In this document: piece by piece, positions 13,763 to 61,854 of the stretch
How the letters are laid out: each line of letters begins with the position of its first letter
Numbering within the stretch: the stretch's first letter is position 1
Source: an uncultured virus (IMG/VR IMGVR_UViG_3300033233_000003)
Taxonomy: Duplodnaviria; Heunggongvirae; Uroviricota; Caudoviricetes
Length of the DNA: 64,000 nt
Strand: one strand, 5' to 3'
Virus record (IMG/VR): IMGVR_UViG_3300033233_000003
Notes under the pieces: model-generated
Told to the model about the DNA's origin: nothing
The model's database searches: none
Seen by the model: only the letters and a program-made list of their open reading frames with translations
Translations under genes and position numbers: made by a program

Positions 13763-14090
13763 TTTTCAAAGCGCGGTCGCCTCCGGCGCCGCTTGTCAGA
13801 AAGGAGCTGTTTCTCATGCCCGAGATCGACGAGAAGGCGGTGGCGAAGAAGGTGCTCGAAGAGTGCGTCTCGTGCCGGGTGTTCCTCAAGAAGGCGATCG
13901 GCGAGCGCGTCGCGCTCGTCAAGGACGACCCGGAGGGGCGCATGGTGCGGATCAACGGCGCGTTTCAGGCGCTGCTCATCACCGCGGCGCACATCCTGTG
14001 CGCGGAGGGCGTGCCGAAGGAGGCCTTCGTCAAGGCGGCCGAGGAGTGCTACGGGCTCGCGCAGAAGGAAGTTGCGGCGGGAGGTGCGCC

Positions 14091-14798
14091 GTGAGTAACA
14101 CCGGCACCGGCATCCCTTCCACGCCTCCTGGATTCAGGGGAATCCCGCACTCTACGATCTTCTCGCCGAAGAGCTTTCAAAGTCAGGTCAGCCCTGGCGG
14201 GATGAAGGGGATCTTGGCATCGCTGGAGCAAGAGAAGAAGCTCACGATCGAGAAGTTCGACAAGGCCATCGCGATGGTCGAGGTGCTCGTCCCGCGCGAC
14301 GTGAACGTCAGCGTGAGCTTTGCGGTAGCGGAGAACGATCGGGAAGCCTTCAAGAAGGAGGCCGCCGCGACGGAGAGGGTCGCTGCTGCGAGGGAGGTGG
14401 CCGCTGCGGAGGAGAGGGTTGCGATCTCGAAGGAGAGGGTCAGGATTGCGACGGAGAATGTAGCCTTCGCGACGAAGAGGGCCGTGGCGGCGGAGAAGAG
14501 GGTCGCGGCCTCGATGAAGAAGGCTGCGGTGCGCAAGATCCGAGAGGACAAGAGGGCCAGGAAGTTCAATGGGGTCGCGGTCCGTCGTGTCTCGGCTTCT
14601 CTGAGACGCCCGCTCGTCGGTCACCAGCTCACCGTGCTCAAGCTGATCCCGAAAAGAGACAGCATCAATCTGCCGAATCTCGTGAAGAGGGCAAAGCTCG
14701 AACGCAGCCATGTCGCCGGCATCCTCACCATCCTGACGCGTCGAGGTTTTGCAAAGCGCGTCGGGCGAGGGCAGTACGCACGAGCGGCGAACCGATGA
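14091..14798 (+). CDS. Coiled-coil protein with C-terminal winged-HTH-like segment
   Basis: AAAxERVA repeats; VAGILTILTRRGFAKRVGRGQY. Confidence 0.55.
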   Translation: MSNTGTGIPSTPPGFRGIPHSTIFSPKSFQSQVSPGGMKGILASLEQEKKLTIEKFDKAIAMVEVLVPRDVNVSVSFAVAENDREAFKKEAAATERVAAAREVAAAEERVAISKERVRIATENVAFATKRAVAAEKRVAASMKKAAVRKIREDKRARKFNGVAVRRVSASLRRPLVGHQLTVLKLIPKRDSINLPNLVKRAKLERSHVAGILTILTRRGFAKRVGRGQYARAANR

Positions 14799-15668
14799 CT
14801 GAGTCTACCGTCGATCCCCCGAAGCCGACGGGCAAGCCGGCGACCGAGGTGTCGCTCACGGGGATGCTGATCCCCTGGTCAACGTGGTCGCCTTCGGCGC
14901 CGCTTGGCGAAGACCAACCTGTGCTGCTGAACATGCCGGGCTCGCCGAGCTTCTACCTGCCGTGCTTCACGACGGAAGACAAGCTTCGGCAGACGATGGG
15001 CCGCGCGAAGATCGAATTCCAGAAGATCAAGCGCATCGACGACGGTCGTGAGTTCCTGGCTTCGATCGAAGCTCAGCGAGGCGTTGTCGTCATCGTCGAT
15101 CCGCATTTCCTGGAGAACGGTCGGGTCCGCTTCACGGAGATCCGATCGCCCTCGTACGGCTCTCACGAGGACCCGTCGACGAGCCTCGGCATGCAGGCGG
15201 CGTCGAAGATGACCGCGTCGAACGGGAAGAGCGGTGTTGCGCCATGAGCGCCGTCGGCATGAAGTGTCGCTTCTGCAAGCGATCGCTCCGTGGCATCGGA
15301 AAACTGCCGTCTACCACTGCCAGCGTAGCGACATCGCTTCATGACACGTTCACGGAACGTTTCAACCGAAAATGTCCGAAGTCGTCAGATGGGGCATGTT
15401 GGCGACAGACCCAGACAGTCGTCAAAGCAGGCTCCGGCAAGAAGGCCATGAACATCGTCTTCGACGACGCCGCCGTGCCCTCGCGCGGAGCGCGCCTCGG
15501 CACTCGCGCACGCTGGGCGTCGGAGTACCTGAGGCGCTTCTTCTCCGGTCAGAAGGCCGACAAGAAGAGCATCAGCCTCGCGCTCAAGTGGATCGACGAG
15601 GCGATCGAGAGATGCAGCGCTCCAGCGACGTCGAAGACGACCGCGTTGGGACCGAGGGAGGAGCTGAC

Positions 15669-16109
15669 GTGAGCCGGCCCGGGACCCTCGACTGCTGCCG
15701 AGACGGAGACGATCCGGAGCAGAAGCTTCATCGTCGAGACTGCGACTGGATCGCACGCAAACGCCGCGAGTTCCGCCCCGGGCTCTATCGGCACTACAAG
15801 GGCGGCGTCTACCACGCGATCTGCCTCGTCACGCACCACGATACGCGGCTGCCGATGGTGCTCTACGAGTCCTACACCTACGGAGGCACGAACGTGCGTC
15901 CGCTCGTCGGCTGGCCTGGAGATCCGGACGGCTGGATCGACGAGATCGAGACGTTGCCGGCCGAGGCTCTGCCGAACGGGATGACCCGGGTGTTTCCGTC
16001 GAAAATCTTCCGCTTCGAGTTCGTCGGCGAGCTTCCGAGCGACGAGAAGATCGCCGATCGCGTCGCTGCGTTCGAGGGCTTGCGGAGCACCACCAAGGTG
16101 TCAGGATAG
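15669..16109 (+). CDS. DUF1653-like protein
   Basis: PGLYRHYKGGVY...HHDTRLPMVLYES...VRP. Confidence 0.75.
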   Translation: MSRPGTLDCCRDGDDPEQKLHRRDCDWIARKRREFRPGLYRHYKGGVYHAICLVTHHDTRLPMVLYESYTYGGTNVRPLVGWPGDPDGWIDEIETLPAEALPNGMTRVFPSKIFRFEFVGELPSDEKIADRVAAFEGLRSTTKVSG

Positions 16110-16114
16110 GTTCC

Positions 16115-18344: not shown

Positions 18345-18445
18345 GTGCGCGATGCGATCTCACTTTACTACCTCGCAACCGGATAAGCATGGGTCCTTCC
18401 TGCGCCAACGCGGTCGCCTTCGGCGCCGCTGGTGAGAGGTGCTTG

Positions 18446-20678: not shown

Positions 20679-23600
20679 TTGACGCGCGTGATCACGTCGT
20701 GTATACACATGGACGTGTCCTCGATCGAAGACGACGAAGCCGTGCAACGAGTCAAGGAGCGCTTCTCGCCCGAGCAGCGGGCCCGCATCGATCAGTTCTT
20801 GGACGGCCTGTCGGAAGAGCAGATCCGATCCATCGTGAGGCCCATGACGGAGACCCAGAGGGAGACCCTGCTCCTTCTCATGCTCGAAAGCGGTAGAGAC
20901 ATCCACCCGGTCGACCGCATGTGGCTCGACGATCGGCTCGCCGCGAAGGCTCGATCCGACATGAAGGCTTCCCTCATCGCGCAGCTGAAGGTGCTCCTCG
21001 ACGTGGCCGGAGCCACCACGGCTTGGAGCGAGATCGAGTCGCAGCTCATTGGACTCTCGGAGCACGTGCTCTTCGCGCTCGTCTACCGTGTGGAGCGGGC
21101 GCGTGGCGACGCGTTCGACGAGGGCGTCGACGCGCGAAGACGCGTCGCCGATGATGTCGACGGCCGAAGGCGAGAGGAAGGGCTGCAGCGATGATGCATC
21201 AGATGGAAATGCTCCGTCGATTCCAGATCACGAGGTCAGGTTATGACTGTATCCACAACCCCTGCGGCGAGGGTCGCTGTGGCATCGATCCAGGCGGCAG
21301 CCACGGCATCCACAACGACGAGTGGGTCTTCGCCGCGGCGGACGATGAGTTCGGAACCTCGCTGACGGTTTGGACCGGAGTCTTCCCGTCGAGCGTCGAC
21401 ACCTCGAAGTTGACGGGCACGAGTCTCATGAGCAGGCGTGGCATGTTCTTCCACGAACACGCGACTTTCTTGACCGGACGCAGGGCCGTGCTCGACGCCG
21501 TCGAGCCGGAGGAGTGCCCGTTTCTCGGAAAGTGCTTCTCGGCGGATGCCTCCACGATCGAATACGCCGAGAAGTTCTTCGCCTCCTTCGTCGAGGGTCT
21601 TCCCGAGAATCTGGATCCATCCGGCGCCCCGCCGCCGAACATGCCGGAAAAATTCTGGGAGAGGATGATCGGGGAATGGGTGGAGAGGGCGCGGGCCGCG
21701 AAGGAAGACCGCACCGACGAGTGGCGGCGATGTCCAACGTGTCACGGCGATGGGACGGTTCCAGCCAAGCTCTTGATCTTCGGTTCCAACGAATCGAGCA
21801 GCCGTGAAGCGGACAGGAAGGACGACGCGCGATGAGCAAAGCTCGATCGAAAAAAAGAGACGGCGGCATCGCGCTCTCTGCCGACACAGTTGAGTCCAGC
21901 GGCCGTGGAGCGGACCGCGTGGAGAAGGCGTACATCGAGGCGGAGATGCGAGATCCGAAATCCAAGCTCGTGAACTGGCCGCCCTCGCGCGGCCCCATGC
22001 CGAAGCACATGCTGAAAAAATCGAAGTTCAAAGTGCCGCGCTTCGAGCTGAAGCTCGTCGAGCCGACTCGAAAGAACATCGACGACGGCGATCCACTGGT
22101 CGTGTTCGCGCGTGCCGAGGGGCGCAAACGAAGAGGGGCTGGGAGAGGGAAGAAGCGACTCGATCTTTCGCTCTGGCAGCAGGTGTCGGAGACCGCCACG
22201 CTCACTCCCGAGCAGTGGGGCCTCGTCGGCGGCGCGGCGAAGGACAAGCGGCGCCACGGCGGCGCCAAGCTCGTGACGTACCTCTGGATGGATGACCTCG
22301 TCGGACCGGACAGAGTGGTGCCGGACGGGGTGAAGCACATTCGAGGCAAGAAGAGCAAAGGCATTCCCGTAAACTGGACGCGGCCGGGGCCGCCGAAGGA
22401 GCTGACGTTCGACCTCAGCTACCCCCTGAACAAGATCGGACGGGTGACGATCCGTCCCTACGAGGTCAACGGGCACCTCCAGATGACGGTCGGCTACGTG
22501 CTCTGGCAACTCGCCCAGGCCTACCTGCAGATCTACGAGGAGCACGAGCGCTACGGCGTCTGGGGCCACGCGATCGACGACATCGGCTTCGAGACCATGA
22601 CGATCGTCGGCGACCTCGGCTTCGTCGGGATGGGGTCGTGAGATGGGCCGAGAGATTCGCCGCGTGCCCCTCGACTTCGACTGGCCGCTCCACAAGCTCT
22701 GGCGCGGGTTCGAGAATCCTCACTACAGGGAGTGTCCCGGCTCGGAGGGCGACGCCTGCGTCGCCGGCTACAGCGCGGCCGGCAAGTGGTTCAACTCGAT
22801 CGTCTCTCTGATCCAACTCATCGGCGATGAGGCGGTAGAGCGCACGCCAGAGCATTCGTGCGTGAGAAATTCAGACCCTCATCCGTACCTCACGGAGTGG
22901 CCGCAGGCCCCGCGCCACGATCTCCCGTACGCAGAGAGGGTGAAGATCCGAGCGCTCGACGACAGGGCCGAGAGGCGACGAGCGCTCGACGACGCACTTC
23001 GTCGATTTCCGCCGAGGGTCCTGCCTCTGACCGGGGAGCTTGCCGGACTCGTTCGAGGCCTCGCGGGAAACGAGAAGCGTGGCTTCGGTCCACGCTTGCA
23101 CTTCAGCGACCATGCGATCGACGAGGCTCTTCGACGGGCCGCGGGCCTCGACGAGAACTGGGGCGTCTGCATGATCTGCAACGGCAGCGGCATCGATCCC
23201 GCAGTGTGCGAGGCGTACGACGCGTGGGAGGAAGAGGATCCGCCGGTAGGCGAAGGCTGGCAGCTGTGGGAGACCGTCACGGAGGGGTCTCCGGTCTCGC
23301 CTGTCCTGCCGACGCGCGAGGCCTTCGTCGACTGGCTCGTGAAGAGCGGACAGACCCGCAAGGCTGCCGAGGCATTCACCGCGGAGGGGTGGTGCCCGAG
23401 CGGGATGATCGTCGACGGGAAAGTCTACGAGGGCATCGAGTCTGTCGGGATCAAGGATGATTCGCCATGAGCACTGGCAGCCTCGGCGTGGACGACGAGC
23501 GACGCACGCGCCTGCTGGAGAACGGACACGTGGCGATCTGGCTCGTGAAGGACTTCTGTTGGTGCAGCGGCTTTCGGGCGCTCGGCGTGTCGATGGCGAT

Positions 23601-26088
23601 CCCGACCGTGGGCCTCGCCGCCTACCTCGTCTATCGAACGCGCCGCGAGCTGCGAGACCTCACACACAACCTCGCCGTGCTGCTGTGGCTCTGCGCGAAC
23701 ACAACGTGGATGGTTGGCGAGTTCTGGTTTTCGGACACGACCAGGCCGACGGCGAAGGTGTTTTTCGTCGCCGGGCTCATCGCGCTCTGCCTCTTCTACC
23801 TCTGGGCGCTCGGGAATCGAACGAGCGATCTGAAGGAGGAGACATGAAGTCGAAACCCAGCGGCCGCGAAGCGGACCGCGTCAGCGAGGTCGTCTCCGCG
23901 TCTCTCGTTGCGCTGGAGCGACCTGCACCGCCGCTCGACCGCGCGCTCGCTGCGATCGAGGAGCTGGTGGAGGCCGCGGTCCGCGGCAAGGCCAGGACGC
24001 GCTTCGGCGACGCCGCGCGCATCTGCGCGGTGGGCACGCAGCTCCAGTCGGCGACGGCCGAAGGCGTGCTCGATGACCCAGCGCTCGGCTTCGATTGCGG
24101 CGGAAACGTCGCGAACTACGGCTGGGCTCCTGCCATGGGCGCCAATCCCAATCGAGCGGGTGCCGTCTATCGCGGTGACGGCCAGCAGAATCAGATGGAC
24201 CAGAACCAGATGATCCAGCAGATCATGGCGCAGGCGGGGCCGATGGTGGTGTCGCAGGCCGCGAGCTACCGGGCGATCGAACTGCGGGACCTGCAGCGGG
24301 CGCTCGACGAGAGCAAGAGCCTGAAGACTCGGCGCGTGATCCGTGCGCGCATCGCGGCGATCATCGACCAGATGGCGGAGCAGACGGAACAAGCGAATCG
24401 CGAGAAGCACTCAGCAGCAAATGGCGTGAAAGGACGAGAACATGCAGACAGCGGAAGAACTGGTGATCCCGACCTGGCTCATCCCGAGCCTCTACGGCGA
24501 CGTGCGCCTGGAGGCGGACCGAACGGTCGAAGGAATGGAGGCGACGATCCTCGTCGCTCAGAACCTCTCGCCGACCGAGGAGGCGGCGATGGAGATCTTG
24601 CGCAGGCGCGCGATCGCCGAACCGAGGAAGTTCTGGCCGCTGCGCATCGGGAAGATCCCGTGGGCGACGGCGGAGGATTTCCGCCCCATCGTCGAAAAGA
24701 CGTACAGGGAGACGGAGGTGAAGGTGCGCCTGCGCGCTCCGATCGCAGCGGTCGCGGCCGTGCTCGGAAGGGCGATGAAGCCAGGTCGGCGCATCGTGTC
24801 GGTCGTCAAGTTCGCGGACGGTAGGATCGAGGAGATCCACGGCGCGGCGACGACCGTGACATCCGCCGCGACCGCGATGACGACGGCCCTCGCCCTGCCA
24901 GCGAAAACCGAGAAAGAGATCGTCAAAACCGAAAAGAAGAAGGACTCGATCGTCAAGAAGGTCGTCGTGGAAGTCGCAGCGACCGTCGCTGCGCCGACGA
25001 TCGGCTGCCCCGCGCCTGATTTCGGCAAGAGCGAGGTCCGCGCGCGTCGCGTGCTCCTGACGTTCCTCGACGACAGGCAGAAGGAGGATCTGCAGAAGAC
25101 TGGACGGTTCGTCACCAAGGGTCAGGACACGGGGCGGCGCTACCTCTTGTCGCTCCGCGACGGGCCCGAGGGACTGATGCGCACGGGCGGGCGCGGCGTC
25201 TACGACCTCGACGCCTCGTCGTCTCCACGATGCGGGCTGAATCCTCGCGACGTCTCTTTCCACGGCGGTCCGCTCTGCGTGCACGACTGGACCGTGCCGC
25301 CCTCCGAGGAGGTCCTGGCGATCCACCTGATGCTCAGCTTGCCTGGACGCGAGAGCCTGATGCGGAGGCTGCCGGAGATCTTGGGCCAGCAGCCGCGAAG
25401 CGGACTGCGTTGAAGGCGATGAGCGCCTATCAAGAAGACAAGTCGCTCGCGATCAAAGAGATCCTGGCCGGGCTCTCGCAGCTGCGCAACCAAGAGCAAC
25501 GCTTCTCCGAGGGAGGCCTCGGGAATCGCAATGCCCCCGAGGTGCTGGAACAATTCAGGCTGCGGCGTGAGGCCATGGAGGCGCGCGTCGAACGGCTGCT
25601 GAAGCCGGAAGAGTCGTGATGACCGGCTTCAACGTCGACGAGCGCGATCGGCTCAATCTCACGCGGTCCGCTTCGCGGCCGCTCGAAGAGATTCCATCAT
25701 GACACCGTGTCCGCTCTTCTGCTCGATCTGCGAGCGAGTCCTACGCCCGGATGAGATCTGGTACATCCTCAGGGCGCCTGAAGCGTTCACCACGTGCTGC
25801 GCGAGAGATCGAAGGCTGACGCTCGCGATTCCGCCGAAACCGGGCTGGCGCTGCCTCGAATTCCACAGCCCTTGCGATGAGCAGCAGGCCGATCAGAGAG
25901 ATTGCTGCACGATCTGCGGCGTCGAGAAAATGGTGCACCCATATCGATGCGCGGAGTGCGACGAGATCGTCGATGTAACGTGGTCCCCTTCGCGGCCACC
26001 TCACTCATGTGGCGAAGTCGCAAAGCAGCTCCGTCGAGAACTCGAAGCGCTCCAGAGGAAGATCCAGCACGCGTCGGAGGATCGATGA
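20679..26088 (+). other. Run of coupled hypothetical ORFs (20679-21194, 21191-21835, 21832-22641, 22643-23470, 23467-23847 membrane, 23844 onward, 24442-25413, 25419-25619, 25699-26088)
   Basis: Start/stop overlaps and SD motifs; several CxxC motifs; no family recognised. Confidence 0.6.
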
Positions 26089-26412
26089 GCGTCACCCGCA
26101 CCATGGTCCAGTGTCATCGATGTGGTCGCTACCACCACGGAGAGCTGGAGCAGGCCGAGTATGACCACGAGGCCGCCATGAACGTGGCCTATCAACGGGC
26201 TCGCGCCGATGGCTGGATGGACGACTCGACCTCGTGGCTTTGGCGCAGAATTCCCATCCGTCTCCTAATTTCTTCTCGGTCGCCGCATCCGTCTCAATAT
26301 TCGCTCCTCGCATTTCCTTCTCCGTCACGTTCGTTGAAACCGTCTCTTTATTCAACCTCCGATTTCCTCGGTTCCAAGTGAGTCGCTCGACCTCGGCCGT
26401 CGTCCATCGGGA

Positions 26413-27000
26413 ATGGCTAACGACCTCGCACGTACCATCGACCGATCTCGCTCGATCTTCACGAACCTGCTCAGGCAGCTTCCGCCAGTCGACCGCGACC
26501 GGCACCTCACCAAGCACGCCGACGATATTCAAAGCTCGATCGACGACGTGCTCGCCGACCTCGACGGCGCTCCCCCGGTCTCCCTGCGTTCCCGAGCAAG
26601 AGGCCGCCCGCCCGGCGTGTCGAACACGCCGATGCCCCAGGTGCCGGCCAACGACGCGGGCGTGGCTACCGAGCCGCACGTCCACGACGCGGCGTGCGAG
26701 CACCTGCACGAAGCCGTGGCGAAGGCCGAGGGCGCGACCGTCCCGAGCGCCGTCCGCGCCGTGCTTGCGAGCGAGACGATCGGACTGCCGCCGAAGCAGG
26801 TCATCGCAGGCGTCAAACTCCTCCGACCCGAGACGGACGACGAGTCCGTGCATGGCGCGCTGCATCAGATGTGGCGGCGCGGCGAACTCGCCCGCGAGGG
26901 CGTCCACAAGAACTACCGCTATCGCCTCGTCCCGCTCACGAGCCTCGGGTCCGGCGTCGTCCACATGGAGGGTCGCGGACCGGGAGGTGAGACGCACTAG
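26413..27000 (+). CDS. Winged-HTH accessory protein (element D)
   Basis: TVPSAVRAVLASE...VHGALHQMWRRGELAREGVHKNYRY. Confidence 0.8.
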   Translation: MANDLARTIDRSRSIFTNLLRQLPPVDRDRHLTKHADDIQSSIDDVLADLDGAPPVSLRSRARGRPPGVSNTPMPQVPANDAGVATEPHVHDAACEHLHEAVAKAEGATVPSAVRAVLASETIGLPPKQVIAGVKLLRPETDDESVHGALHQMWRRGELAREGVHKNYRYRLVPLTSLGSGVVHMEGRGPGGETH

Positions 27001-27076
27001 CCTGCGATCCCGCAGCGACGCACGCGCGGGATGTCCAAACGAACCCCACCGACCCTCGCGGTCGGCTGGCCGAGGT

Positions 27077-27271
27077 CTACCCTTCGCCACCGCCGGCCGT
27101 TCCCTTCGCACTCGCGAGAGCGAGCGAGCGCAGCCAGCCCGACACGTCGAGCCCGGCGGCCTTCGCCGCTTCCGTGATCACCCGCTTCTGCTCCGAGGTT
27201 ACCGTGACCTTGATCACGTCCTCTTTCCGTTCCGACTGCGTTTTCCGCCTCTTCTTCCGCTCTGTTCCCAT
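27077..27271 (-). CDS. Ribbon-helix-helix regulator (element D)
   Basis: VIKVTVTSEQKRVITEAAKAAGLDVSGWLR. Confidence 0.85.
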   Translation of the reverse strand: MGTERKKRRKTQSERKEDVIKVTVTSEQKRVITEAAKAAGLDVSGWLRSLALASAKGTAGGGEG

Positions 27272-27352
27272 CGTGACATAACGGTATGGCCCCAGCATGG
27301 CCCTGTCAAGGCCCCCCTTGACACGTGGCCCCAACGTGGCCATGCTGTGGCC

Positions 27353-28639
27353 ATGATGAACGTGGATCAGGGACAGGCGGTTCGGGCGCAGAAGGCCATG
27401 ACGATCGCGAAGCAAGAGCGCATCGCAAAGCGCGGCCACCTCTGGGTCGTGCCCTCACAGAGCCACCAGGGCCACTACGTCGTGTCCAACGACGTGGTGA
27501 ACGGCATGCCCACTTGGGAATGCTCCTGTCCCGACTACGCGACCCGCGGTCAGCCGTGCAAGCACGTGATCGCGGTCGAGATCGTCAGACACCGATCGAT
27601 GCCCGACGGTTCCACCGTCACCGAGACACTTCGCGTCACGTATCGGCAGAACTGGCCGGCGTACGAGGCTGCGCAGGTCCATGAGAAGGAGCATTTCCGG
27701 CTCCTGCTTCGCGACCTTTGCAGCGGCATCGTAACCGTCCCGCACAAGGCCGCAGGTCGCCCTCGAATGCCGCTCGCCGACGTGGTCTTCGGCTGCGCGA
27801 TGAAGGTCTACTCGACCGTCTCGGGTCGTCGGGCGATGACCGACATCGAGGACTGTCACAAGATGGACCTGATCGCGAACGTCCCCGACGAGAAGACGCT
27901 CTTCCGCTACATGGGCAACCCAGCGCTGACACCGCTGCTGTCAGACCTGATCACGCAGACAGCGCTTCCTCTTCGCGGCGTCGAGTCGTGCTTCGCGGTG
28001 GACTCGACTGGCTTCGCCAATTCAACGTACGTCCGCTGGTTCGATGAGAAATACGGTTCGGAGCGGAGCCACAAGACGTGGGTAAAGGCCCACGTGATGT
28101 GCGGCGTGAAGACCCACGTGATCACGAGCGCGATCATCACGCCTATGAACGGCGCAGACTGCCCGCAGTTCAAAAACCTCGTGGAAGACACGGCGCGGCA
28201 CTTCAACATCGTCGAGGTCAGCGCCGACAAGGCATATCTCTCGCGCGAGAACGTCGGCCTCGTCGATTCGCTCGGCGCCTACCCCTACATCGAGTTCAAG
28301 GACGGGACCGGCGAAGGCACGATTGGTAGGGACGGCCGTGCGGCGCCCTTCGCGAAGCTCTGGGCAAAGCTCTTCCACGCCTACCAGTACGACCGCGAGA
28401 ACTTCCTCACGCACTACCATCGGCGGTCGAACGTTGAGAGCGTCTTCGCCATGATCAAGGCGAAGTTCGGAGCGGCAGTACGCTCGACCTCGCCGATCGC
28501 GCAGATGAACGAAGCGCTGGTCAAGATTCTCTGCCACAACATCGTGGTCAACGTAAGCGCCATCTACGAGCTTGGCATGACCCCCATTCTCGGCCCCGCC
28601 GCCGCTGGTAATCTGATCCTCCAAAGCGGGGCCGCGTGA
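27353..28639 (+). CDS. SWIM zinc finger-DDE transposase, element D
   Basis: CSCPD...CKH; AVDSTGF, SADKAY, YHRRSNVESVFAMIK. TTGACA-17-CATGCT lies 6 nt before the ATG. Confidence 0.92.
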   Translation: MMNVDQGQAVRAQKAMTIAKQERIAKRGHLWVVPSQSHQGHYVVSNDVVNGMPTWECSCPDYATRGQPCKHVIAVEIVRHRSMPDGSTVTETLRVTYRQNWPAYEAAQVHEKEHFRLLLRDLCSGIVTVPHKAAGRPRMPLADVVFGCAMKVYSTVSGRRAMTDIEDCHKMDLIANVPDEKTLFRYMGNPALTPLLSDLITQTALPLRGVESCFAVDSTGFANSTYVRWFDEKYGSERSHKTWVKAHVMCGVKTHVITSAIITPMNGADCPQFKNLVEDTARHFNIVEVSADKAYLSRENVGLVDSLGAYPYIEFKDGTGEGTIGRDGRAAPFAKLWAKLFHAYQYDRENFLTHYHRRSNVESVFAMIKAKFGAAVRSTSPIAQMNEALVKILCHNIVVNVSAIYELGMTPILGPAAAGNLILQSGAA

Positions 28640-28911
28640 TCACCATGACGTGTGAGGCCACGAGGCTCGACGCGGCCGACGCGGAGGTGCCGTGCTGCCA
28701 GCAGGTAACGATTCAACGTGGGGACTTCGCGCTCTGCGATCAGTGTTCGACGGAGCAATTCACCTGTGAGTGTCCCGCTCCCGAGCGGCGCCTCTACATC
28801 GTTACTGGACATGGCGGATCAAGCGCAGTCTGCGCGTACTGTGATGACTGCGCTGCGCTCGCGGAGATGGACTGGAGCGGCGAGACGGCCGCCATTCGGG
28901 TGGCGTCGTGA
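28636..28911 (+). CDS. Small Cys-rich protein (first cargo gene of D)
   Basis: GTGA overlap with the transposase; multiple CxxC. Confidence 0.55.
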   Translation: MITMTCEATRLDAADAEVPCCQQVTIQRGDFALCDQCSTEQFTCECPAPERRLYIVTGHGGSSAVCAYCDDCAALAEMDWSGETAAIRVAS

Positions 28912-29210
28912 CCGTCACAGAGATCGTGCTGACAGTGCTTCGCACCACACCCGGCGTTGTGCCAGGAGCACTGCCATGGCTTACCATGCGCGAAATCATC
29001 GATCGCGCAGCCGAACGCGGGGAGACGATCTCGCTGAACACGGTGGCCTCCGCGCTCGCGAATGTCGAGTCTGGCGCTCTCTACGTGGATCGCTCACGGC
29101 GACCCTTTAGGTATCGGACGAAGCGAGGCGCTGAAGAAATCAAGCAACCGGAATCGGGTTCGTGTCGATCCGTGAGTGGACAAGCAAAGTCCACTGGAGG
29201 TGGCTCGTGA
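28908..29210 (+). CDS. Small winged-HTH-like protein (cargo of D)
   Basis: Near-identical to 417-656. Confidence 0.7.
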   Translation: MTVTEIVLTVLRTTPGVVPGALPWLTMREIIDRAAERGETISLNTVASALANVESGALYVDRSRRPFRYRTKRGAEEIKQPESGSCRSVSGQAKSTGGGS

Positions 29211-31636: not shown

Positions 31637-32241
31637 AGAATCGAAGCAGGATCGATCGTGTACAGACCGTCGCGTTTCAGCCAATGAGCCATCGCCCACG
31701 CTTCTTGGAAACGAATGTCAGCCATCGTCAAGCCGTAGTCGCGGCACAGTTTCTTGAATTCTTGATAGACGGTCGGTCTCTTGACGAAGAGGATCCACAT
31801 GAGAGCTGCCTCAGTGGTGAGAAATGTTTTGCCGCCATGTTTATGCGAAGGCCGACGGATCACGTTGCAGCGTCGACATCGAAGGGTCATGTTTTCAAGG
31901 CGATCGGCTTCGTCGCCGTGATCTTCTCTCGTCTCGATATGGTCGGCCTGCAATTCGAGCCGACTCCCACAGTCGGCGCAGCGTCCAGTCTGATTGAAGT
32001 GCCACTGAATGACAGCTCGCATGATTTGTCTGGGTGGAAAATGCTTCTGGAACGTTGCCTTCGACGCGATCGACGTGCCAACCTGAGAAGGATTTAGATG
32101 GCCGAGCATCAATGCGGCCACCTGTTGGTACGTCACCAACCCGGTGTCCGTGAACCATTGAATTAGGCGTCTCCAGTTGTCTTCGGTCCACTGCGAGTCC
32201 TTCTCGGGGAAATCAGCGAACGGCGAGCCATGCTTGGCCAT
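31633..32241 (-). CDS. HNH endonuclease (putative cognate restriction enzyme)
   Basis: CADCG...LQADH...LENMTLRCRRCN; convergent with the MTase. Confidence 0.8.
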   Translation of the reverse strand: MAKHGSPFADFPEKDSQWTEDNWRRLIQWFTDTGLVTYQQVAALMLGHLNPSQVGTSIASKATFQKHFPPRQIMRAVIQWHFNQTGRCADCGSRLELQADHIETREDHGDEADRLENMTLRCRRCNVIRRPSHKHGGKTFLTTEAALMWILFVKRPTVYQEFKKLCRDYGLTMADIRFQEAWAMAHWLKRDGLYTIDPASIL

Positions 32242-32966
32242 GTCGAGCGATCGTCAGTTGCTCTGTCGAGGCGGGCCAACTTTGGGGTCCGGGTGCCCCT
32301 CCTCGTCGAGAGCCGACCGGAGGCGTGATGGGCAGCGCGCTGGTCGTGATGACGGTACCCGAGGAGTGTCTTCCCGTGTCCGCGCTCCGCATCGCGGACA
32401 AGGACGGCGAGCCAGTTCCTGTCCCCGGGTTGAGCGGGTGGCCCTGGAAGCCGCGGGAAGAGCTTGAGGCGACGCTCTCCGCCCACCCGGACGCCTTCTG
32501 GGTCCTGCGCGTGCCGCGGAGCGCCGTCTGGGACCCTCCGGGCGAGTCCGGCGTTCTCGCCACGAACAAGGTGGCGAGGGGTCCATGGCGGGCGGGTCCG
32601 CCATTCGCTCCTGCACTTCCTGAACGACAAGCTCGGCGAACTCGACGGAATGGTACGGACGGGATGGTGGATCTTGCAGCGGGCACGTGTGCGGCTCGCG
32701 ACGTTCGAGGAGCAGTCGTGACCGATGCGCATTTCTCAGAATTTTCCACCCGCCGAAGTGCCGTCTCTAATTCCAACGGGTCGGCTCAGAATTTCGTCTC
32801 AGAATGCAATTCTGCGCCAAAGCCCGACCTCGTCAAAGACAGCCACGACGCAGCGAAGAAGATGCAGGCGGCAGAATCCGATGCTTTGCCCTCGCTGCGT
32901 CGTGCGGAGCGAATTCAGTGACTACGTCCACGACGCGTCTTCGCGCGTCGATGAGGAGCCCTCGCG

Positions 32967-35615: not shown

Positions 35616-35619
35616 CGCC

Positions 35620-55505: not shown

Positions 55506-56105
55506 CTAGCCGCACGCGCGAAGCGGTGCCCTTGGCGATCGCGCCGAAGATCTCGTCGAGCGCGTCGAGGATCGTGACTCGATCTCGTCACCATCGTCTT
55601 CATCTTCGCGCGTGACGTCGATCACGTCCGCCTGCACAGAAAGCTCTTTGGCTTTCCCAAACGCGGTCGGCTGCGCCGCCGCTTGCTTGGCTCGCCACTC
55701 GCGCTTGTAGGCGTTGTAGATCTCGCGGCACGCCTCACACCGACAGCCGTACTTGTAGCTCGTGATGGTGCCGTGCCCGCGCTCCTCCGCGCGCTCGGTC
55801 GATCGCTTGCGCGTGCGACACGTTCGGCAGAGCAGCACGCAGCGGAGCAGCTCGCGCTCGATGCGCTCCTTGCTCTTGCTCCAGATCTTCGCCAGCTGAC
55901 TCGGCCCTTCCGGCTCGCAGCCATTGGCGTACTCGAAGCCGAGTTCGCTCCCGTCATCACCATGAGCACCACCATGCGTAGCGCCGCCATCGCCTTTGGC
56001 GCCGCAGTGCACGCACTTTCCACCCGCACGCGCGATCGCCTCACGACGCAACCGATGGTAGCGCGCGAGCTGATACTCCCTGTTCTGCTCCCTACCGAAC
56101 GGCAT
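55506..56105 (-). CDS. HNH-like zinc-binding protein, possibly degenerate
   Basis: GGKCVHCG...CVLLCRTC...HGTITSYKYGCRCEAC; the expected DH is not visible. Confidence 0.6.
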   Translation of the reverse strand: MPFGREQNREYQLARYHRLRREAIARAGGKCVHCGAKGDGGATHGGAHGDDGSELGFEYANGCEPEGPSQLAKIWSKSKERIERELLRCVLLCRTCRTRKRSTERAEERGHGTITSYKYGCRCEACREIYNAYKREWRAKQAAAQPTAFGKAKELSVQADVIDVTREDEDDGDEIESRSSTRSTRSSARSPRAPLRACG

Positions 56106-56482
56106 CTTTTGCCCTACCCGGACACGCGCCGAAGAGACGAGGTTCGCGTGAGCTGAAACCGTTCGTCACCAGGATCGATCATCGGAGAAAAACCCCCGTG
56201 TGCGCGACAACCTGCGCGATCACGAGAGTTACACCGGGTTGGGTTCAAAGTGCATCTTCTTGGCATCGAAAGGCATCGATGCGTCGAAGATCACCGCGGA
56301 ACGTCGATGAAACGTCCCGTCACTTCAAGGTGAAGTCTCCTTCCATCCACTCGTTCTCGTGGACTTGGAAGCGAAGATGGCGCCATGCTGCTTCCTCATC
56401 GCGGACGGCAGATCGCCTCCGCCAGGATTCAAACGCGGTCGCCTTCGGCGCCGCTTGTTCCCTCGAAGGAGGCAGGTAGAAA

Positions 56483-57989: not shown

Positions 57990-59405
57990 ATGGAGAGGGG
58001 TTACCAGGCGAACGTCACGCTCGGCCTCTTCCGGGGCGGTCGCGACGCGACCGAGAAGCTGCGAGACGAGCAGCTCTCGGGACAGGCCATGCGCCTGCTC
58101 CTCGACTGCCTCTTGCAGATCGACATCCTGGAGCTGCGCGCGTTCCCGGACATCCCGCCGGTCTACAAGTCCGGCGTGAAGTACCGCGTGCGCAGGAGCC
58201 CCTGCGGCGAGGACGCGTGGCGAGACATCCTCTCGTGCGTCGAGGAGCGCATCGCAGACTGCTTCCCCCAGGGGACGCTCCTTCTCCGCGACGACTTCGT
58301 TCTTGTGCCTATCGAGAAGATCCAGGTCGGCGATCGCATCTGGGGCCGAGACGCTTGGACGACGGTGCAGGCCAGTGTCTACAAGGGGCTCCTCTCCGTC
58401 GACGCGATGAAGATGAACAACGGATCGATCGTGCAGCTCACGGGTGATCACCACGTCTTCGTCGGTCGCTGTGACAAGCATCGTCAGGAACTCGACTCCG
58501 GCTATGGTTGTTCCTGTCGACTCGAAGATCGACGAGTCGAACGCATCGGGCTTCGAGACGTGAAGGAGAAGGACGTCCTCATCACACCCGAACGACTCCC
58601 CTTCGGGCAACAGTCGTTCGATCCGAAGAAGGCTTACGTCGAAGGCCTCTTCGTTGCCGACGGTTGGTCAAGTACGAATCATCAGTTTTGCATCTCCGGT
58701 TTGGATGGGGCGAAGAAGGAGGCGCAGAAGCACGAAGTCAAGCAGATCTGCGACGAGCTAAAGCTCAACACGTACTGGCATCGCAAATACATCGGCGTGA
58801 ACAACAAAGAATGGGCGCTGCGAATGCATGAGATGGGTCGCCATGCGCCGCAGAAACACGTACTTTCGATCAATCTCGACGAAGCGGCGATCGCCGAGAC
58901 GCTCCGCGGCGTCATGGCCGACAGCAAGGTCAACGCGAACGGCGGATGGACGTTCACTAGCACGTCGAAGCTCTTGACCATCCAGACCCGGATCATGCAC
59001 AAGATGTTCGGTCGCTCATCAAGCGTGATGTACTTCGCGACGCATGCGGGTCTCGGAGACAACCCGATCTGGATCCTCGGCGTTCGAGATCCGAAGGTGA
59101 AGTCCGGCAAGCTCCTCCGCGTCAAGGAACTCGTTCGAGACATAGCGGAGGCTCCCTGCTACGACATCCAGACCTCCGACGGCTACGTCTACCTGCCGGA
59201 GCACGACGTTACTGTCTCGAACTGCAAGGATCTCGCCTGCTGGCGTGCTGGAGAGCTGATCGTGCGGCTCGGCATCATGGCGAAGCCGGTGTTCATCCGG
59301 CAGGAGCGACCGGGAGACGGCCCGCTCTACCACATCCTGGTGGAGATGCCGGACGGCAGCTACGAGGACCCGTCGATCATCCTCGGCATGACGGCGGCGG
59401 CGTGA
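57990..59405 (+). CDS. Transglutaminase-like cysteine enzyme containing an intein
   Basis: Spliced product ...ERIAD|CKDLACWRAGEL...YHILV...EDPS gives a Cys-His-Asp triad. Confidence 0.75.
   Translation: MERGYQANVTLGLFRGGRDATEKLRDEQLSGQAMRLLLDCLLQIDILELRAFPDIPPVYKSGVKYRVRRSPCGEDAWRDILSCVEERIADCFPQGTLLLRDDFVLVPIEKIQVGDRIWGRDAWTTVQASVYKGLLSVDAMKMNNGSIVQLTGDHHVFVGRCDKHRQELDSGYGCSCRLEDRRVERIGLRDVKEKDVLITPERLPFGQQSFDPKKAYVEGLFVADGWSSTNHQFCISGLDGAKKEAQKHEVKQICDELKLNTYWHRKYIGVNNKEWALRMHEMGRHAPQKHVLSINLDEAAIAETLRGVMADSKVNANGGWTFTSTSKLLTIQTRIMHKMFGRSSSVMYFATHAGLGDNPIWILGVRDPKVKSGKLLRVKELVRDIAEAPCYDIQTSDGYVYLPEHDVTVSNCKDLACWRAGELIVRLGIMAKPVFIRQERPGDGPLYHILVEMPDGSYEDPSIILGMTAAA
58260..59222 (+). mobile_element. 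Intein (321 aa) with LAGLIDADG-like core
   Basis: Block A CFPQGTLL, block B LTGDH, YVEGLFVADG, LRGVMADS, CYDIQT, C-terminal TVSN followed by Cys. Confidence 0.9.
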
Positions 59406-59561
59406 GCGTCATGTTTCTCGTCTTTGAACCCTCACGGAGATCGATCACGACGACACGAGCGAGTAGACTTCACGGTGATCTCTTCCGAGCGAAGACTGCT
59501 TGCCGACTTCAGTGATGCAAAGGTAAATTTCATCGCGTAGTGCGAAGAGAAGGTAAAGAGC

Positions 59562-61793
59562 ATGCCCGCGCCCATCATCCCCATCCTGATCGGCGCCGCC
59601 GTGATCGGCGGCGCGATGCTGCTCGGCAAGAAGGGCGCGGCGCATCCGCCGACGCCGCCAGCTCCGAAGAAGCCGACTCCGCTGCCTGGAGTGCCTGGAG
59701 TGCCTGGAGTGCCTGGCCTCCCCGGAACGGTGCCGTTCCCCGTCCCCGGCGTTCCCGGCATGCCGGGTCCAGGTGGCTACACCGCGCCGCCGTTCGTTCC
59801 GCCGAGCGGAGTGCCTCCGATCAGCGGCGTGCCCGGCTGGCCGCCGACGTGGTGGCCCGGCAAGGAGATCGGCACGCCTCCTCCGCTGCCGCCTCTGCCA
59901 GGAACGTTTCCAGGAAGCGGCGGCACCACCGGCCCGATCCCGGGCACGACGACGGGGCCGACCACCGCGGCGCCCGACGACGGCGTCGCCGGCCTGCCCG
60001 AGCCGCTGAAGACGACGACGGTGATGGCGATGAGCACGGCGACCGGCAACGAGGGCGCGAACGGACTCGACGGGCTCGCGCTCGAACTCGATCGCATGGG
60101 CCAGCACAAGGCGGCCTACGAGGTGCGCGCACGCAGCAACGAGGTCCGCAAGGCTGCGGGCGGAGGGACGGCTTCGGCCGCGCCGACGCTCGGCGCGGAG
60201 GATTACGGCGTTTACACCGACAAGAACAAGGGCAAGTGGAAGTTGACCTCCGGCACGTCCGGCTGGTCGGCCGAGTCCTCGGACTACTTGCCGGCGATCG
60301 GATCGCTCTTCGCGATGACGTACGAGGCGCTGATCGCCGAGATCGACGCGTTCGCCGGCATGTACATGAAGACCTCCGTCAGCGGCAACCTCGGAGATCC
60401 TGCGCTGCAGTACCCCGGCACGGTCGGCTTCCCCGGTGGCTACGCTCACGCCTGGCACGACGAATCCGTGCCGCACGATGAGGCCGCCGAGGGCTGGCCT
60501 CACACCAGCGGCGCCGGAGGCGACCGCGTCGGGACGGGCGCGATGACCATTCCGCTCGCCGCGACGATGCGCATGCACGCAGATCCTCGCGGTACGATGA
60601 TGGGACCGCGACGCGCACCGCTTCCACCGGAAGGAAGCGCTGATACCAAGCTCTATCAGTTTGGCTACCAGCGAGGTCGCGACGACTTCTGCAACGGTCA
60701 GCCTTACAACCCGAACAGCGCGGTGGTCAGCAGCGACATCTTCAGGGTGGCCGCATGGTCGAAGAGCGAGAAGATTGCTCGCGCAAATTACGTTCGCGCG
60801 GGATATGAGCACGGCTATCGCGCCGCTCGCGACGAGGGCTGTGGCACCCATCCCATCGCGCTCGTGCCGCAGCAGGTCCCGCCGAAGTTCGGAACTCAGA
60901 TGCAGGCGATGCAGAGCCATCCTCAGTACGCGTCGCACACCAGCGGCGCCGGAGGCGACCGCGTCGGGACGGGCGCGATGGCGGTACCGCTCGCCACGAC
61001 GATGCGATCGCACGCGAGGTCGATGAGATACGAGCCTGGACGTCCCGTCCCCATCACCATGGGAGGGGAGTGGGAGAAGGCTTACAGCTTCGGCTATCGA
61101 GCAGGTTACGACGACTTCTGCAACAGCCGACCCTATTACCCGAACGGCGCGGTCGTCAAGAGCGATGTCTTTCGAGATCTCACGAAGTCCGGATGGTCAA
61201 AAGAGTTCATCCTCGACATCGCAGGCAACATTCGACATGGATACGAGGACGGCTATCGCGCCGCTCGCGACGAGGGCTGTGGCAGTCATCCCATCGCGCT
61301 CGTGCCGCAGCAGGTCCCGCCGAAGTTCGGTACTCAGATGCAGTATGCGTGGGACGACGGCCGATTTCATCCGTCAGGGCGGCGCGAGATCGTGAAGGAG
61401 GAGCCTCCGCCTCCGCCACCGCCGCCTGAGCGATATGGTCGCCAGCCGCCTGCGCCGCCGACGGCTCAGATGCAGGCGATGCAGAGCCATCCTCAGTACG
61501 CGTCGCACGCGGGCGCCATCGCGATCCCGATGCAGGCGTCGCACTTCAACGTGCAGCAGCACTTCGCGGTTGGCAAACCAGCACCGCCCCCTCCGCACCT
61601 CCAGCACAACATCTTCGACGAGCTGCCGATCGATCTGCGTCGGATCATCGACGTGATCTACCTCGGCTGCAAGAATCGTTCAGTCGATTGGCGCGCAGTG
61701 AGGGAGTGGGCCGCGCTCTGCAACGCCCGAGGATTCACCGCCTCCGCGCAAGTCCTCTGGGACTGCGCCGACAGAATGGCGAAGGGATACTGA
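59562..61793 (+). CDS. Pro/Gly-rich membrane-anchored protein with internal duplications
   Basis: N-terminal TM; PGV repeats; YxxGYxxGxDDFCN...AARDEGCG domain twice. Confidence 0.75.
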   Translation: MPAPIIPILIGAAVIGGAMLLGKKGAAHPPTPPAPKKPTPLPGVPGVPGVPGLPGTVPFPVPGVPGMPGPGGYTAPPFVPPSGVPPISGVPGWPPTWWPGKEIGTPPPLPPLPGTFPGSGGTTGPIPGTTTGPTTAAPDDGVAGLPEPLKTTTVMAMSTATGNEGANGLDGLALELDRMGQHKAAYEVRARSNEVRKAAGGGTASAAPTLGAEDYGVYTDKNKGKWKLTSGTSGWSAESSDYLPAIGSLFAMTYEALIAEIDAFAGMYMKTSVSGNLGDPALQYPGTVGFPGGYAHAWHDESVPHDEAAEGWPHTSGAGGDRVGTGAMTIPLAATMRMHADPRGTMMGPRRAPLPPEGSADTKLYQFGYQRGRDDFCNGQPYNPNSAVVSSDIFRVAAWSKSEKIARANYVRAGYEHGYRAARDEGCGTHPIALVPQQVPPKFGTQMQAMQSHPQYASHTSGAGGDRVGTGAMAVPLATTMRSHARSMRYEPGRPVPITMGGEWEKAYSFGYRAGYDDFCNSRPYYPNGAVVKSDVFRDLTKSGWSKEFILDIAGNIRHGYEDGYRAARDEGCGSHPIALVPQQVPPKFGTQMQYAWDDGRFHPSGRREIVKEEPPPPPPPPERYGRQPPAPPTAQMQAMQSHPQYASHAGAIAIPMQASHFNVQQHFAVGKPAPPPPHLQHNIFDELPIDLRRIIDVIYLGCKNRSVDWRAVREWAALCNARGFTASAQVLWDCADRMAKGY

Positions 61794-61854
61794 TGGCCTT
61801 CCCCTTCTTCACGCGGACGCCTGCGGCGCCGCTTGGTCACGGAGGAAATCGCTG

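Follow-up and report, generated by a model that had tools for sequence, protein, structure and literature searches.

A family of GNA-loop hairpin repeats, probably of the REP/RPE kind, dispersed in a phage-like mobile element

The hairpin repeat of about 30 bases that is scattered through this DNA is a selfish palindromic repeat of a kind known from bacteria, and neither a new promoter nor a packaging signal. It is a new REP/RPE-like family without a known mobilising enzyme. The copies probably form a family of very small non-autonomous elements, built on a unit of about 30 nt and akin to bacterial REPs and the in-frame palindromic elements of Rickettsia (RPEs).

Copies of the repeat in the window

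We analysed a 64-kb stretch of DNA (the window). The repeat unit reads ACC or ACT, then AGCGG-N4-GNA-N4'-bulge-CCGCGT, then YGGG. We counted 22 hairpin copies at 18 loci, the array of five at 42534-42676 being treated as a single locus. An earlier sequence-only reading had listed 21 dispersed hairpins; all of its positions were found again, together with a copy at 25388 (+) that it had missed. Three copies (15196, 15624 and 14882) are decayed. The copies, and one decayed inverted unit, are as follows.

13771-13793, minus: copy, loop GGA, in the spacer that separates the stop at 13760-13762 from ATG 13816, antisense to plus-strand genes; 43.5 bits
14882-14904, minus: copy, loop GAA, outer stem with a single unpaired cell (CCAC), occupying roughly codons 30-37, in frame, in the ORF that begins at 14795
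15196-15218, plus: decayed copy (GGCGG..GATG, one G-T pair) within the last 17 codons of ORF 14795-15247, next ATG 26 nt on; 38.1 bits
15624-15646, plus: copy, inner stem CGTC/GACG, within the last 16 codons of ORF 15244-15672
18408-18430, minus: copy in the spacer past an IS1595-type transposase ORF, about 15 nt ahead of the next ATG
21898-21920, plus: copy, inner stem CCGT/GCGG, loop GGA, occupying codons 23-30, in frame, in ORF 21832-22641
23859-23881, plus: copy, inner stem CCGC/GCGG, in frame at codons 6-13; the ATG has GAAGGAGGAG ahead of it
25388-25410, plus: copy, compensated outer stem GCAG/CTGC, in the last 8 codons of ORF 24442-25413; 43.6 bits
25661-25683, minus: copy, inner stem CCGC/GCGG, in an 80-nt spacer; ATG 25699 is 16 nt on
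42534-42676, minus: five units in tandem (period 30 nt), read in frame within ORF 42297-42899 as (T-[TP]-RSPSAPLV) x5
42677-42698, plus: decayed unit, inverted, head to head with the array, from direct sequence reading and with no model match
42968-42990, plus: copy, loop GGA, occupying codons 25-32, in frame, in the ORF that begins at 42896
44552-44574, plus: copy, inner stem TCGC/GCGA, bulge G, beginning 10-12 nt past an ATG that overlaps the upstream stop
46421-46443, plus: copy in frame, mid-ORF 46118-46813, with a perfect 14-nt direct repeat at -41 and +29
55661-55683, minus: copy, inner stem CGGC/GCCG, loop GCA, sense within the HNH endonuclease gene 55506-56105 (minus)
56433-56455, minus: copy in a spacer; ATG 56483 is 27 nt on, with GAAGGAGG ahead of that ATG
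60507-60529, plus: copy in internal repeat 1 of the 743-aa ORF 59562-61793, part of an in-frame 30-nt insert
60942-60964, plus: copy in internal repeat 2 of the same 743-aa ORF
61811-61833, minus: copy, loop GCA, bulge T, in the spacer that separates the 743-aa ORF from the gene after it, flanked by a duplicated stop/start region (16/20 nt alike)

The sequence-only reading had proposed an enrichment check and a covariance-model scan, and both bore out the family. The degenerate pattern matched the window exactly 17 times, compared with 0.01 times on average over 100 dinucleotide-shuffled versions, and 31 times with up to 2 mismatches, compared with 5.78 ± 2.32 in the shuffles. Five unrelated GC-rich genomes (3.6-8.4 Mb) showed 1-2 pattern matches each, about equal to the reversed-pattern control. 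The covariance model recovered 19 whole copies in the window at 38-53 bits, with the best other match at 14.9 bits; the remaining 3 copies are array units that, owing to overlap with adjacent units, were seen as truncated matches (19-23 bits). The copies span 48 kb, and about 40 kb of the window showed no copy by this model. The model found no match inside the transposase ORFs of the window, in agreement with the earlier observation that the transposons hold none.

Stem, loop and bulge

The covariation of the stem that had been claimed from the sequence was confirmed in an alignment of 20 copies. In the 8-bp stem 98.8% of cells were paired, compared with 86.8% in shuffles, and 15 double-change cells were spread over 4 stem pairs; these values were reached by 0 of 500 shuffles, and slid controls showed 23-52% pairing. 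Two cells did not pair (14882 and 15624). Like stem variants tend to be neighbours (four adjacent same-variant pairs, P = 6e-4), and the changes therefore represent about four independent stem lineages and not 15 events. Part of the compensatory change could stem from hairpin-templated repair instead of selection.

The loops were GAA in 14 copies, GGA in 6 and GCA in 2, and the single bulged base was A in 20 copies, G in one (44552) and T in one (61811). Of the 20 aligned copies, 19 close the loop with a C-G pair and one with T-G. Loops of the d(GNA) type closed by C-G are described as unusually stable in DNA (PMC3201870; PMC13037366). The stem variants alter the encoded residues, for instance from A-G-G to R-E-A, and yet preserve pairing; the constraint is therefore on nucleic-acid structure and not on peptide, and the earlier reading was right on this point.

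Filled and empty sites

Four comparisons, three of them protein alignments, set filled sites against empty ones. Two homologs (139 and 117 aa) of the product of ORF 42297-42899 align on both sides of the array and lack all five units. In the HNH protein, the 8-9 residues at the 55661 hairpin are absent from 3 of 6 homologs, with shorter gaps there in 2 others; homolog P0003 carries hairpin-encoded peptides at residues 84, 94 and 296 and homolog P0005 at residue 29, and the remaining 4 homologs carry none. Within the 743-aa ORF, the 30-nt insert is present in internal repeats 1 and 2 and absent from repeat 3, near 61500. Outside the window, the spacer upstream of a seryl-tRNA synthetase gene measured 51 nt with the repeat in metagenome stretch L031 and 24 nt without it in a MAG sharing 87% protein identity. 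Insertion polymorphism was not seen in the single sequencing run holding the element, a run made up of short assembled pieces that break at repeats. No consistent target-site duplication was found, significant flanking direct repeats occurring at only 2 of 17 sites and differing in length.

Placement relative to genes

Ten loci lie on the plus strand and 8 on the minus strand, in a window where nearly all genes are on the plus strand, and 13 of the 18 loci overlap ORFs as read in this analysis. The several frames noted earlier amounted to three, with a bias: the AGC GGC... frame was used in 7 of 11 sense coding copies. Between 10 and 11 of the 18 loci were within 100 nt of an ORF end, compared with 4.4-4.6 for random places (P = 0.002-0.004). 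Eight loci sit 9-28 nt ahead of a start codon and five 9-87 nt past one. The five spacer copies (13771, 18408, 25661, 56433 and 61811), all on the minus strand, lie 14-27 nt before a plus-strand start codon. Five other loci sit deep within ORFs. Both orientations were found at like positions, and with 62 ORF ends for 18 loci the majority of gene junctions lack a copy.

Copies in other genomes and search for an enzyme

An exact 23-mer of the repeat was found on 33 metagenome contig stretches of 65-77% GC, mostly between genes (for example those for aconitase, ribosomal protein S2 and seryl-tRNA synthetase), in both orientations and sometimes in arrays. The host of the element probably lies near a lineage of Polyangiaceae-like soil bacteria, since relatives of the repeat sit between housekeeping genes there, a placement drawn from one marker gene on the one Polyangiaceae-like stretch among the 33. 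The 31 Polyangiaceae genomes searched gave 0-3 covariance-model matches each.

An HUH/RAYT nuclease or a single-subunit RNA polymerase, which the earlier reading had proposed to look for, was not found in the window. The 393 ORF translations of the window (longest ORF 824 aa) showed no HUH (Y1_Tnp), GIY-YIG or other candidate mobilising enzyme and no match to a phage-type, single-subunit RNA polymerase family. Nor did a candidate mobilising enzyme turn up among 93 ORFs from the metagenome stretches or in G001, a related MAG.

Origin of the repeat and alternative explanations

The sequence-only reading had offered either a REP-like mini-element or a genome-wide structural signal for packaging, priming or N4-type promotion. 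The mini-element is supported by the filled and empty sites in real genes, the tandem arrays and the 23-mer between housekeeping genes of unrelated high-GC chromosomal contigs. The structural signal is not supported: about 40 of the 64 kb are free of copies, both orientations occur despite the plus-strand genes, most loci overlap ORFs, and neither polymerase nor HUH nuclease was found in the window translations.

New copies have entered numerous sites of a large phage-like mobile element (a 188-kb contig) and of its relatives, and they survive where harm is small, in short junction spacers, in first or last codons, or in frame in flexible protein parts. Since the unit has open frames and a length divisible by three, each in-frame copy adds some 10 residues, small or polar. 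Copying may act on a single strand folded into the hairpin, since compensatory changes keep pairing and strand-specific features (the C-G-closed GNA loop and the one-base bulge) are fixed. A single-strand nuclease or transposase that recognises structure would be the enzyme, its gene lying beyond the window, either on the chromosome of the host or in the other 124 kb of the contig. Any benefit to the carrier, such as RNA-end protection, would be secondary.

If the hairpins were instead working RNA or DNA punctuation at gene junctions (stabilising RNA 3' ends, marking processing sites or coupling translation) and were kept by selection on the carrier, the enrichment near ORF ends, the loci shortly before or after start codons and the conserved pairing would all be expected. 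However, this is unlikely, as like positions are occupied in both orientations, five loci are deep within ORFs, most junctions and some 40 kb lack a copy, and homologs lack the hairpin or have it elsewhere in the same gene; moreover, no copy is followed by a T-run and no Rfam family matches the repeat. Spread without an enzyme, in which a very stable mini-hairpin provokes polymerase slippage and template switching and so is duplicated locally or copied to nearby sites in replication or repair, would account for the 30-nt tandem arrays, the local clustering of variants, the irregular flanking duplications at 46421 and 61811 and the lack of a transposase in the window ORFs and G001. We nevertheless give it a low probability: copies over 48 kb, with the same 23-mer at unrelated chromosomal loci of other organisms, call for long-range copying, and the fixed bulge and conserved unpaired flanks resemble protein recognition features.

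An N4-type single-strand promoter, a template-strand hairpin that is extruded and read by a phage-encoded single-subunit RNA polymerase, would share with the repeat a short GC-rich stem bearing a three-base G-R-A loop closed by C-G, a loop and closing pair that N4 promoters need for extrusion and stability (PMC4496689), and would predict the five spacer copies as they stand, on the template strand ahead of start codons. This reading is very improbable, because 10 of 18 loci lie on the coding strand in ORFs and would drive antisense transcription, and the five-unit array sits within a conserved gene. N4 has three such promoters, which all precede early genes on the template strand and are served by a giant virion polymerase (PMC4496689), whereas here there are 22 copies in both orientations, some within genes, no such polymerase among the window translations, and the same 23-mer between chromosomal housekeeping genes. 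Solitary mimics of host CRISPR repeats, used by the element against CRISPR defence, can scarcely be credited. The unit of 28-32 nt, with its stem-loop and 8-nt tail ending GGAAC or GGGAC, presumably resembles a CRISPR repeat, but the array has a 30-nt period without spacers, both orientations are occupied within genes, none of the CRISPR repeat families in Rfam matches, chromosomal copies stand singly between genes and not in spaced arrays, and the Polyangiaceae genomes gave few model matches.

Comparison with known systems

REP/REPIN sequences, moved by RAYT (an HUH, IS200/IS605-like enzyme), are likewise short imperfect palindromes with many copies in both orientations, mostly at gene borders, with compensatory changes that keep pairing, tandem clusters and lineage-specific families. 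In contrast, the GTAG tag was present in 0 of our 22 copies, no RAYT gene was found in the sequence covered, most copies are single units where REPINs are inverted doublets, ORFs are overlapped at 13 of 18 loci, and the three-base GNA loop, fixed one-base bulge and phage-like mobile carrier also differ. Documented cases include REPs within ORFs, at either terminus of the protein (N or C), and arrays that encode 43-82 residues (PMC3733652).

Small GIY-YIG single-strand nucleases recognise the CGTC-tagged REPs, or Ssn-related motifs, of Neisseria (dRS3/NTS) and Rickettsia (RPE-4/-6) (PMC3733652, PMC11893778). As these motifs are described there, they too are hairpins of about 28-30 nt, oriented by unpaired flanks and in some cases in frame within genes, and they act as single-stranded DNA. 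The repeat has CGT(C/T) after the hairpin on the GNA-loop strand, whereas the CGTC tag precedes the hairpin in NTS (PMC3733652, PMC11893778). The published degenerate pattern for these motifs (SRM) matched 0 of 22 copies, and no GIY-YIG gene was found in the window.

The Rickettsia RPEs also insert in frame in real genes, with homologs that lack the insert and added residues in termini or loops. RPE-1 is about 100-150 nt long, compared with our unit of about 30 nt, and its carrier is an obligate intracellular bacterium and not a mobile element; the likeness is one of placement. Borg elements, which are giant archaeal extrachromosomal elements, likewise carry in-frame perfect tandem repeats with units that are multiples of three and add disordered Pro/Ser/Thr-rich protein stretches. 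Their arrays are local, however, and differ in unit from one to the next with no relation between them, whereas the repeat here is one dispersed hairpin family.

Copy number and boundaries of the hairpin family

The hairpin family is a real, structured and insertion-prone repeat of the REP/RPE kind, uncatalogued, with 22 copies at 18 loci in 64 kb when the tandem array of five units at 42534-42676 (-) is taken as one locus. All 21 positions proposed by the sequence-only reading were confirmed, and one further copy was found at 25388 (+). The window contains 17 exact matches to the pattern AGCGG-N4-GNA-N5-CCGCGT, whereas 100 shuffles that preserve dinucleotides averaged 0.01; with up to two mismatches allowed, the counts were 31 and 5.78 ± 2.32. 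In five unrelated GC-rich genomes (3.6-8.4 Mb) the loose pattern gave one or two matches each, about the level of a reversed-pattern control, so the enrichment expected over both shuffled and unrelated GC-rich DNA was borne out. Rfam and tRNA scans gave no matches.

A covariance model was trained on 20 copies and used to scan the whole window with filters off. Nineteen copies scored 38-53 bits and the next best match in the window scored 14.9 bits, which shows the family to be sharply bounded. The remaining three copies, all array units, overlap their neighbours and were for that reason reported solely in truncated form, at 19-23 bits. The scan showed no copies in 1-13.7 kb, 26-42.5 kb, 46.5-55.6 kb and 62-64 kb, and none lay in the window's transposase ORFs, in agreement with the absence from transposons reported before.

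Structure and covariation of the hairpin

In the alignment of 20 copies the 8-bp stem was paired in 98.8% of cells, compared with 86.8% in shuffles, and slid controls were 23-52% paired. Fifteen double-change cells were found in four stem pairs, and none of 500 shuffles reached the observed pairing and double-change values. The stem variants were locally clustered (P = 6e-4 by label shuffling), with four CCGY/GCGG copies at 21.9-25.7 kb and two CGTC copies at 15.2-15.6 kb, so the 15 cells are not independent: the covariation represents about four lineages and about eight pair changes that were compensated. The inner-stem covariation claimed from the sequence alone thus holds as maintained pairing, with fewer separate origins than changed cells. 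At copy 25388 the outer pair was also compensated (GCAG/CTGC). Inner pairs were complementary at three or four of four positions in all 22 copies, G-T pairs included. Three more outer pairs (CCA/TGG) were retained in just 55-70% of copies and were therefore left out of the stem definition.

The loop was GAA in 14 copies, GGA in six and GCA in two, and the one-base bulge was A in 20 copies, G in one and T in one; the three loops and the ever-present bulge described earlier cover all 22 copies. G20, A22 and G23 were invariant in the alignment, and in all but one of the 20 aligned copies the loop is closed by C, as a C-G pair. Two papers (PMC3201870, PMC13037366) describe d(GNA) loops with C-G closure as unusually stable in DNA, which agrees with the stability cited in the sequence-only reading.

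Placement relative to genes

We placed the loci by starts and stops as we read them.

Positions of the 18 hairpin loci
5 loci: short spacers, antisense to + genes in every case, with a start codon 14-27 nt downstream
5 loci: first 37 codons of an ORF
3 loci: last 17 codons of an ORF
5 loci: internal to an ORF

Thirteen of 18 loci overlapped an ORF and five lay in spacers, so the extragenic location of REPs does not hold in the window. Between 10 and 11 loci were within 100 nt of an ORF end, compared with 4.4-4.6 at random places (P = 0.002-0.004). Among sense coding copies, 7 of 11 were in the frame AGC GGC..., and all antisense coding copies used one frame. The earlier statement that copies fall in several reading frames is correct in that more than one is used, but their use is biased. 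The avoided frames would encode arginine runs, and the bias is consistent with a filter by tolerance. Only one inverted doublet was seen, formed by a decayed head-to-head partner at 42677-42698; the other copies were single or head-to-tail.

Filled and empty insertion sites

Judged from alignments with homologs, the hairpin copies are insertions into genes. The array places five 30-nt units in frame in ORF 42297-42899, giving a ten-residue unit repeated five times, and two homologs of this gene from other assemblies (139 and 117 aa) aligned well on both sides, with the whole segment missing in both. For the HNH endonuclease gene 55506-56105 (-) there are six homologs, at 55-72% identity; where the window has the hairpin, 8-9 residues of its protein were missing from three of them and two others had shorter gaps. 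One of these homologs (P0003) has exact hairpin translations at residues 84 and 94, both in the antisense frame and separated by ten residues, and at 296 in the sense frame, and another (P0005) has a hairpin-translation peptide at residue 29, so the positions of the family within this gene differ between related elements. No hairpin-encoded peptides were found in the other four. The 743-aa ORF 59562-61793 (+) has three internal repeats, and a 30-nt in-frame insert around the hairpin was present in repeats 1 and 2 and not in 3, with a two-base (AC) ambiguity at the junction. In-frame insertion into a real gene, missing from homologs, is the mark of RPE-type repeats, and it was found in the array, the HNH gene and the 743-aa ORF.

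These genes provide a clean case of selfish hairpin DNA that colonises a large phage-like element and adds segments of about ten residues to real proteins, including a 50-residue Pro/Ser/Thr-rich stretch, with the states before and after insertion visible in the same genes of related elements. Annotators should expect repeat-derived segments in ORFs of such genomes, and assemblies that break at the repeats.

Upstream of seryl-tRNA synthetase, the spacer was 51 nt with the hairpin (metagenome stretch L031) and 24 nt without it (a Polyangiaceae MAG, protein 87% identical), with the two spacers too diverged for an exact insertion junction. Significant flanking direct repeats occurred at just 2 of 17 hairpin sites and were unlike each other. 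With the array-encoded peptide as phmmer query, 1.84 billion representatives yielded 66 proteins (E <= 0.001), one of them the window's own, and none of the other 65 contained hairpin-encoded peptides. Among viral contigs, the HNH gene had relatives at one distant, hairpin-free locus and the array gene had none. The single sequencing run that contains the element, probably its source, gave no usable insertion polymorphism, and its assembled pieces break at repeats; the joints in these pieces are repeat-induced.

Two sites showed local duplication. A perfect 14-nt direct repeat (CGGAAATCCGCGAG) in 46380-46485 flanks hairpin 46421, 41 nt away upstream and 29 nt away downstream, with its two copies in different reading frames of one open ORF. 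In 61791-61875 the region where the stop of the 743-aa ORF overlaps the start of the following gene (TGATGGC...) occurs twice, once on each side of hairpin 61811, with 16 of 20 nt alike and its own GGAGG in the downstream copy.

Occurrence beyond the window

The exact 23-mer was found in 33 metagenome stretches of 65-77% GC that are otherwise unrelated to the window. Their genes include aconitase, ribosomal protein S2, EF-Ts and seryl-tRNA synthetase, together with many Ser/Thr kinases and sigma-54 activators. On these stretches the hairpin was mainly intergenic, in both orientations, with some arrays (29-33 nt period) and its own flank, GTCCAGGA. Two stretches (L009, L011) carried additional copies beside the ascertained ones, with further compensated stems. 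On L007 (1164-1206) and L013 (895-937) the hairpin lies within an ORF matching a Mu-type portal protein, which places the family also in a prophage-like context of the high-GC lineage.

Among 185,579 species genomes the exact 23-mer had only five hits, all single, and in those five genomes the loose pattern was at control level. In 31 Polyangiaceae genomes the covariance model gave at least 0-3 matches each (lower bounds, with 150 candidates scored per genome). Viral contigs contained no exact match; a looser outer-stem pattern matched 12 times, with just 0-2 of 4 inner pairs complementary, and these were therefore rejected as chance matches. The repeat is common to the element and to chromosomal contigs of Polyangiaceae-like soil bacteria, which would point to such bacteria as hosts. 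This sharing offers a testable host assignment for an element without relatives in phage, plasmid or viral collections.

Candidate roles and known repeat classes

We weighed whether the hairpins could be N4-type promoters read by a single-subunit RNA polymerase, an option raised from the sequence alone. According to PMC4496689, N4 promoters require G and A in the loop and C-G closure, lie on the template strand and are three in number. The loop type here matches, G-R-A with C-G closure on a short stem, and five - strand copies are positioned as such promoters would be. However, placement upstream on the template strand applies to only 5 of 18 loci, whereas 10 are on the coding strand within ORFs; the array lies within a conserved gene, the same 23-mer occurs in bacterial chromosomes, and no such polymerase was found in 393 window ORF translations. 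We regard the promoter role as very improbable. The other option raised, a REP-like mini-element, gained support from filled and empty sites in genes and from the 23-mer on chromosomal stretches, and the short imperfect palindrome (20-40 nt) in many dispersed copies (22 per 64 kb) is as in REPs. An intrinsic terminator does not fit, as no run of T in the flanks of any copy exceeds three on either strand. A CRISPR repeat or solitary repeat unit does not fit the 30-nt period without spacers or the lack of an Rfam match, and found no support in the few covariance-model matches (at least 0-3 per genome) in the 31 Polyangiaceae genomes.

REP/REPIN-RAYT repeats have a GTAG tag at one end, are extragenic and commonly form REPIN doublets, whereas GTAG/CTAC was found within 8 nt of the core in none of the 22 window hairpins, which are mostly in ORFs and mostly not inverted doublets. 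For CGTC-tagged REP/Ssn repeats, the degenerate SRM pattern published in PMC11893778 had one window match, which overlapped none of the 22 hairpins. The likeness to RPEs lies in the in-frame insertion into real genes. PMC3733652 already documents REPs that lie within ORFs, at either terminus and as arrays that encode 43-82 residues. By these sequence features the family appears to fit neither enzyme-linked class (GTAG/RAYT, CGTC/Ssn), which gives a lead to movement of such repeats without such an enzyme.

The nuclease or polymerase that the sequence-only reading suggested looking for was not found in this 64-kb part of the 188-kb contig. Y1_Tnp (HUH, PF01797) was absent from 393 window ORF translations, 93 metagenome-stretch ORFs and a related MAG (G001), and phage-type RNA polymerase families were absent from the same two ORF sets; so was GIY-YIG, in a scan that covered 149 of 196 small window ORFs. 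A transposase search of 41 genomes of the order of Polyangiaceae gave no match and was uninformative. The hairpin is inferred to be copied as single-stranded DNA by an enzyme from outside the window. A broader and rather unlikely reading would make it the substrate of a single-strand DNA enzyme yet to be described, neither RAYT nor Ssn, common to Polyangiaceae-like bacteria and a resident giant phage-like element, or would have it spread without a dedicated enzyme through the unusual stability of the DNA mini-hairpin at replication forks. If an enzyme were shared, the repeat would move between the chromosome of the host and the mobile element, and might serve to pair uncultured elements with hosts.

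The carrier element and its genes

The window has a GC content of about 63%, and from 13 kb on its genes are nearly all on the + strand and mostly without a family match. Recognisable genes encode dihydrofolate reductase, three DNA methylases, a McrBC-like set, an NTPase, a HAD-family protein, a deoxynucleotide phosphatase, two HNH endonucleases, four diverged SWIM-plus-DDE transposase-like ORFs and an IS1595-type transposase. Near-identity searches (20 kb) against phage and plasmid collections gave no match; tblastn gave only distant IS5 matches (about 24% identity) for the transposase in plasmids and only 30-38% matches, in many hosts, for the phosphatase in phages. We tentatively take the window, which is without structural genes, for a portion of a large mobile element, phage-like or of another kind.

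Features of the carrier element
6262-8661 (-), 10380-12641 (-), 26234-28639 (+), 37420-38712 (+): SWIM-zinc-finger and DDE_Tnp_1 ORFs, plus a fragment at 1-376
7596-7793, 11650-11925, 27077-27439: NikA-like ribbon-helix-helix small ORFs, opposite strand within three SWIM-DDE ORFs
37135-37332: NikA-like ribbon-helix-helix small ORF just upstream of the fourth SWIM-DDE ORF
916-5746 (+): restriction-type set, 58-60% GC (below the window), with N6/N4 DNA methylase, AAA_5 (McrB-like) ATPase and DUF2357 plus PD-(D/E)XK (McrC-like)
57990-59405 (+): 471-aa protein, no Pfam match; Atlas model similar to Hint/LAGLIDADG intein-type homing endonucleases
59562-61793 (+): 743-aa orphan with N-terminal hydrophobic segment, PGVPG repeats and three internal repeats of about 145 aa

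The four SWIM-DDE ORFs do not represent a single IS that was copied recently, and these long ORFs may be partly overlapped or over-called. Their DNA likeness was just 65-73%. The two large hairpin-free zones, 1-13700 and 26000-42500, contain these four ORFs together with the restriction set, an HNH gene and a methylase of 824 aa. Both zones may have been added later to a backbone that the repeat had already colonised.

The structural matches of the 471-aa protein (TM 0.61-0.72) were mainly viral clusters, and its modelled likeness to Hint/LAGLIDADG homing endonucleases is no more than a lead. Among 5.8 billion protein clusters, the one with the 743-aa ORF has no other member, and the contig that carries this ORF is 188,059 bases long. 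The short ORF 5912-6349 (-), with an RNA ligase family match, adjoins a transposase-like ORF and may be a gene fragment. A 206-nt duplication with 84% identity (35885-36088 and 41020-41225) has its copies 5 kb apart, an inverted pair at 83% joins 9050-9166 and 39717-39833, and a perfect 24-nt tandem repeat (2.2 copies, 38715-38768) stands right after the transposase-like ORF ending at 38712.
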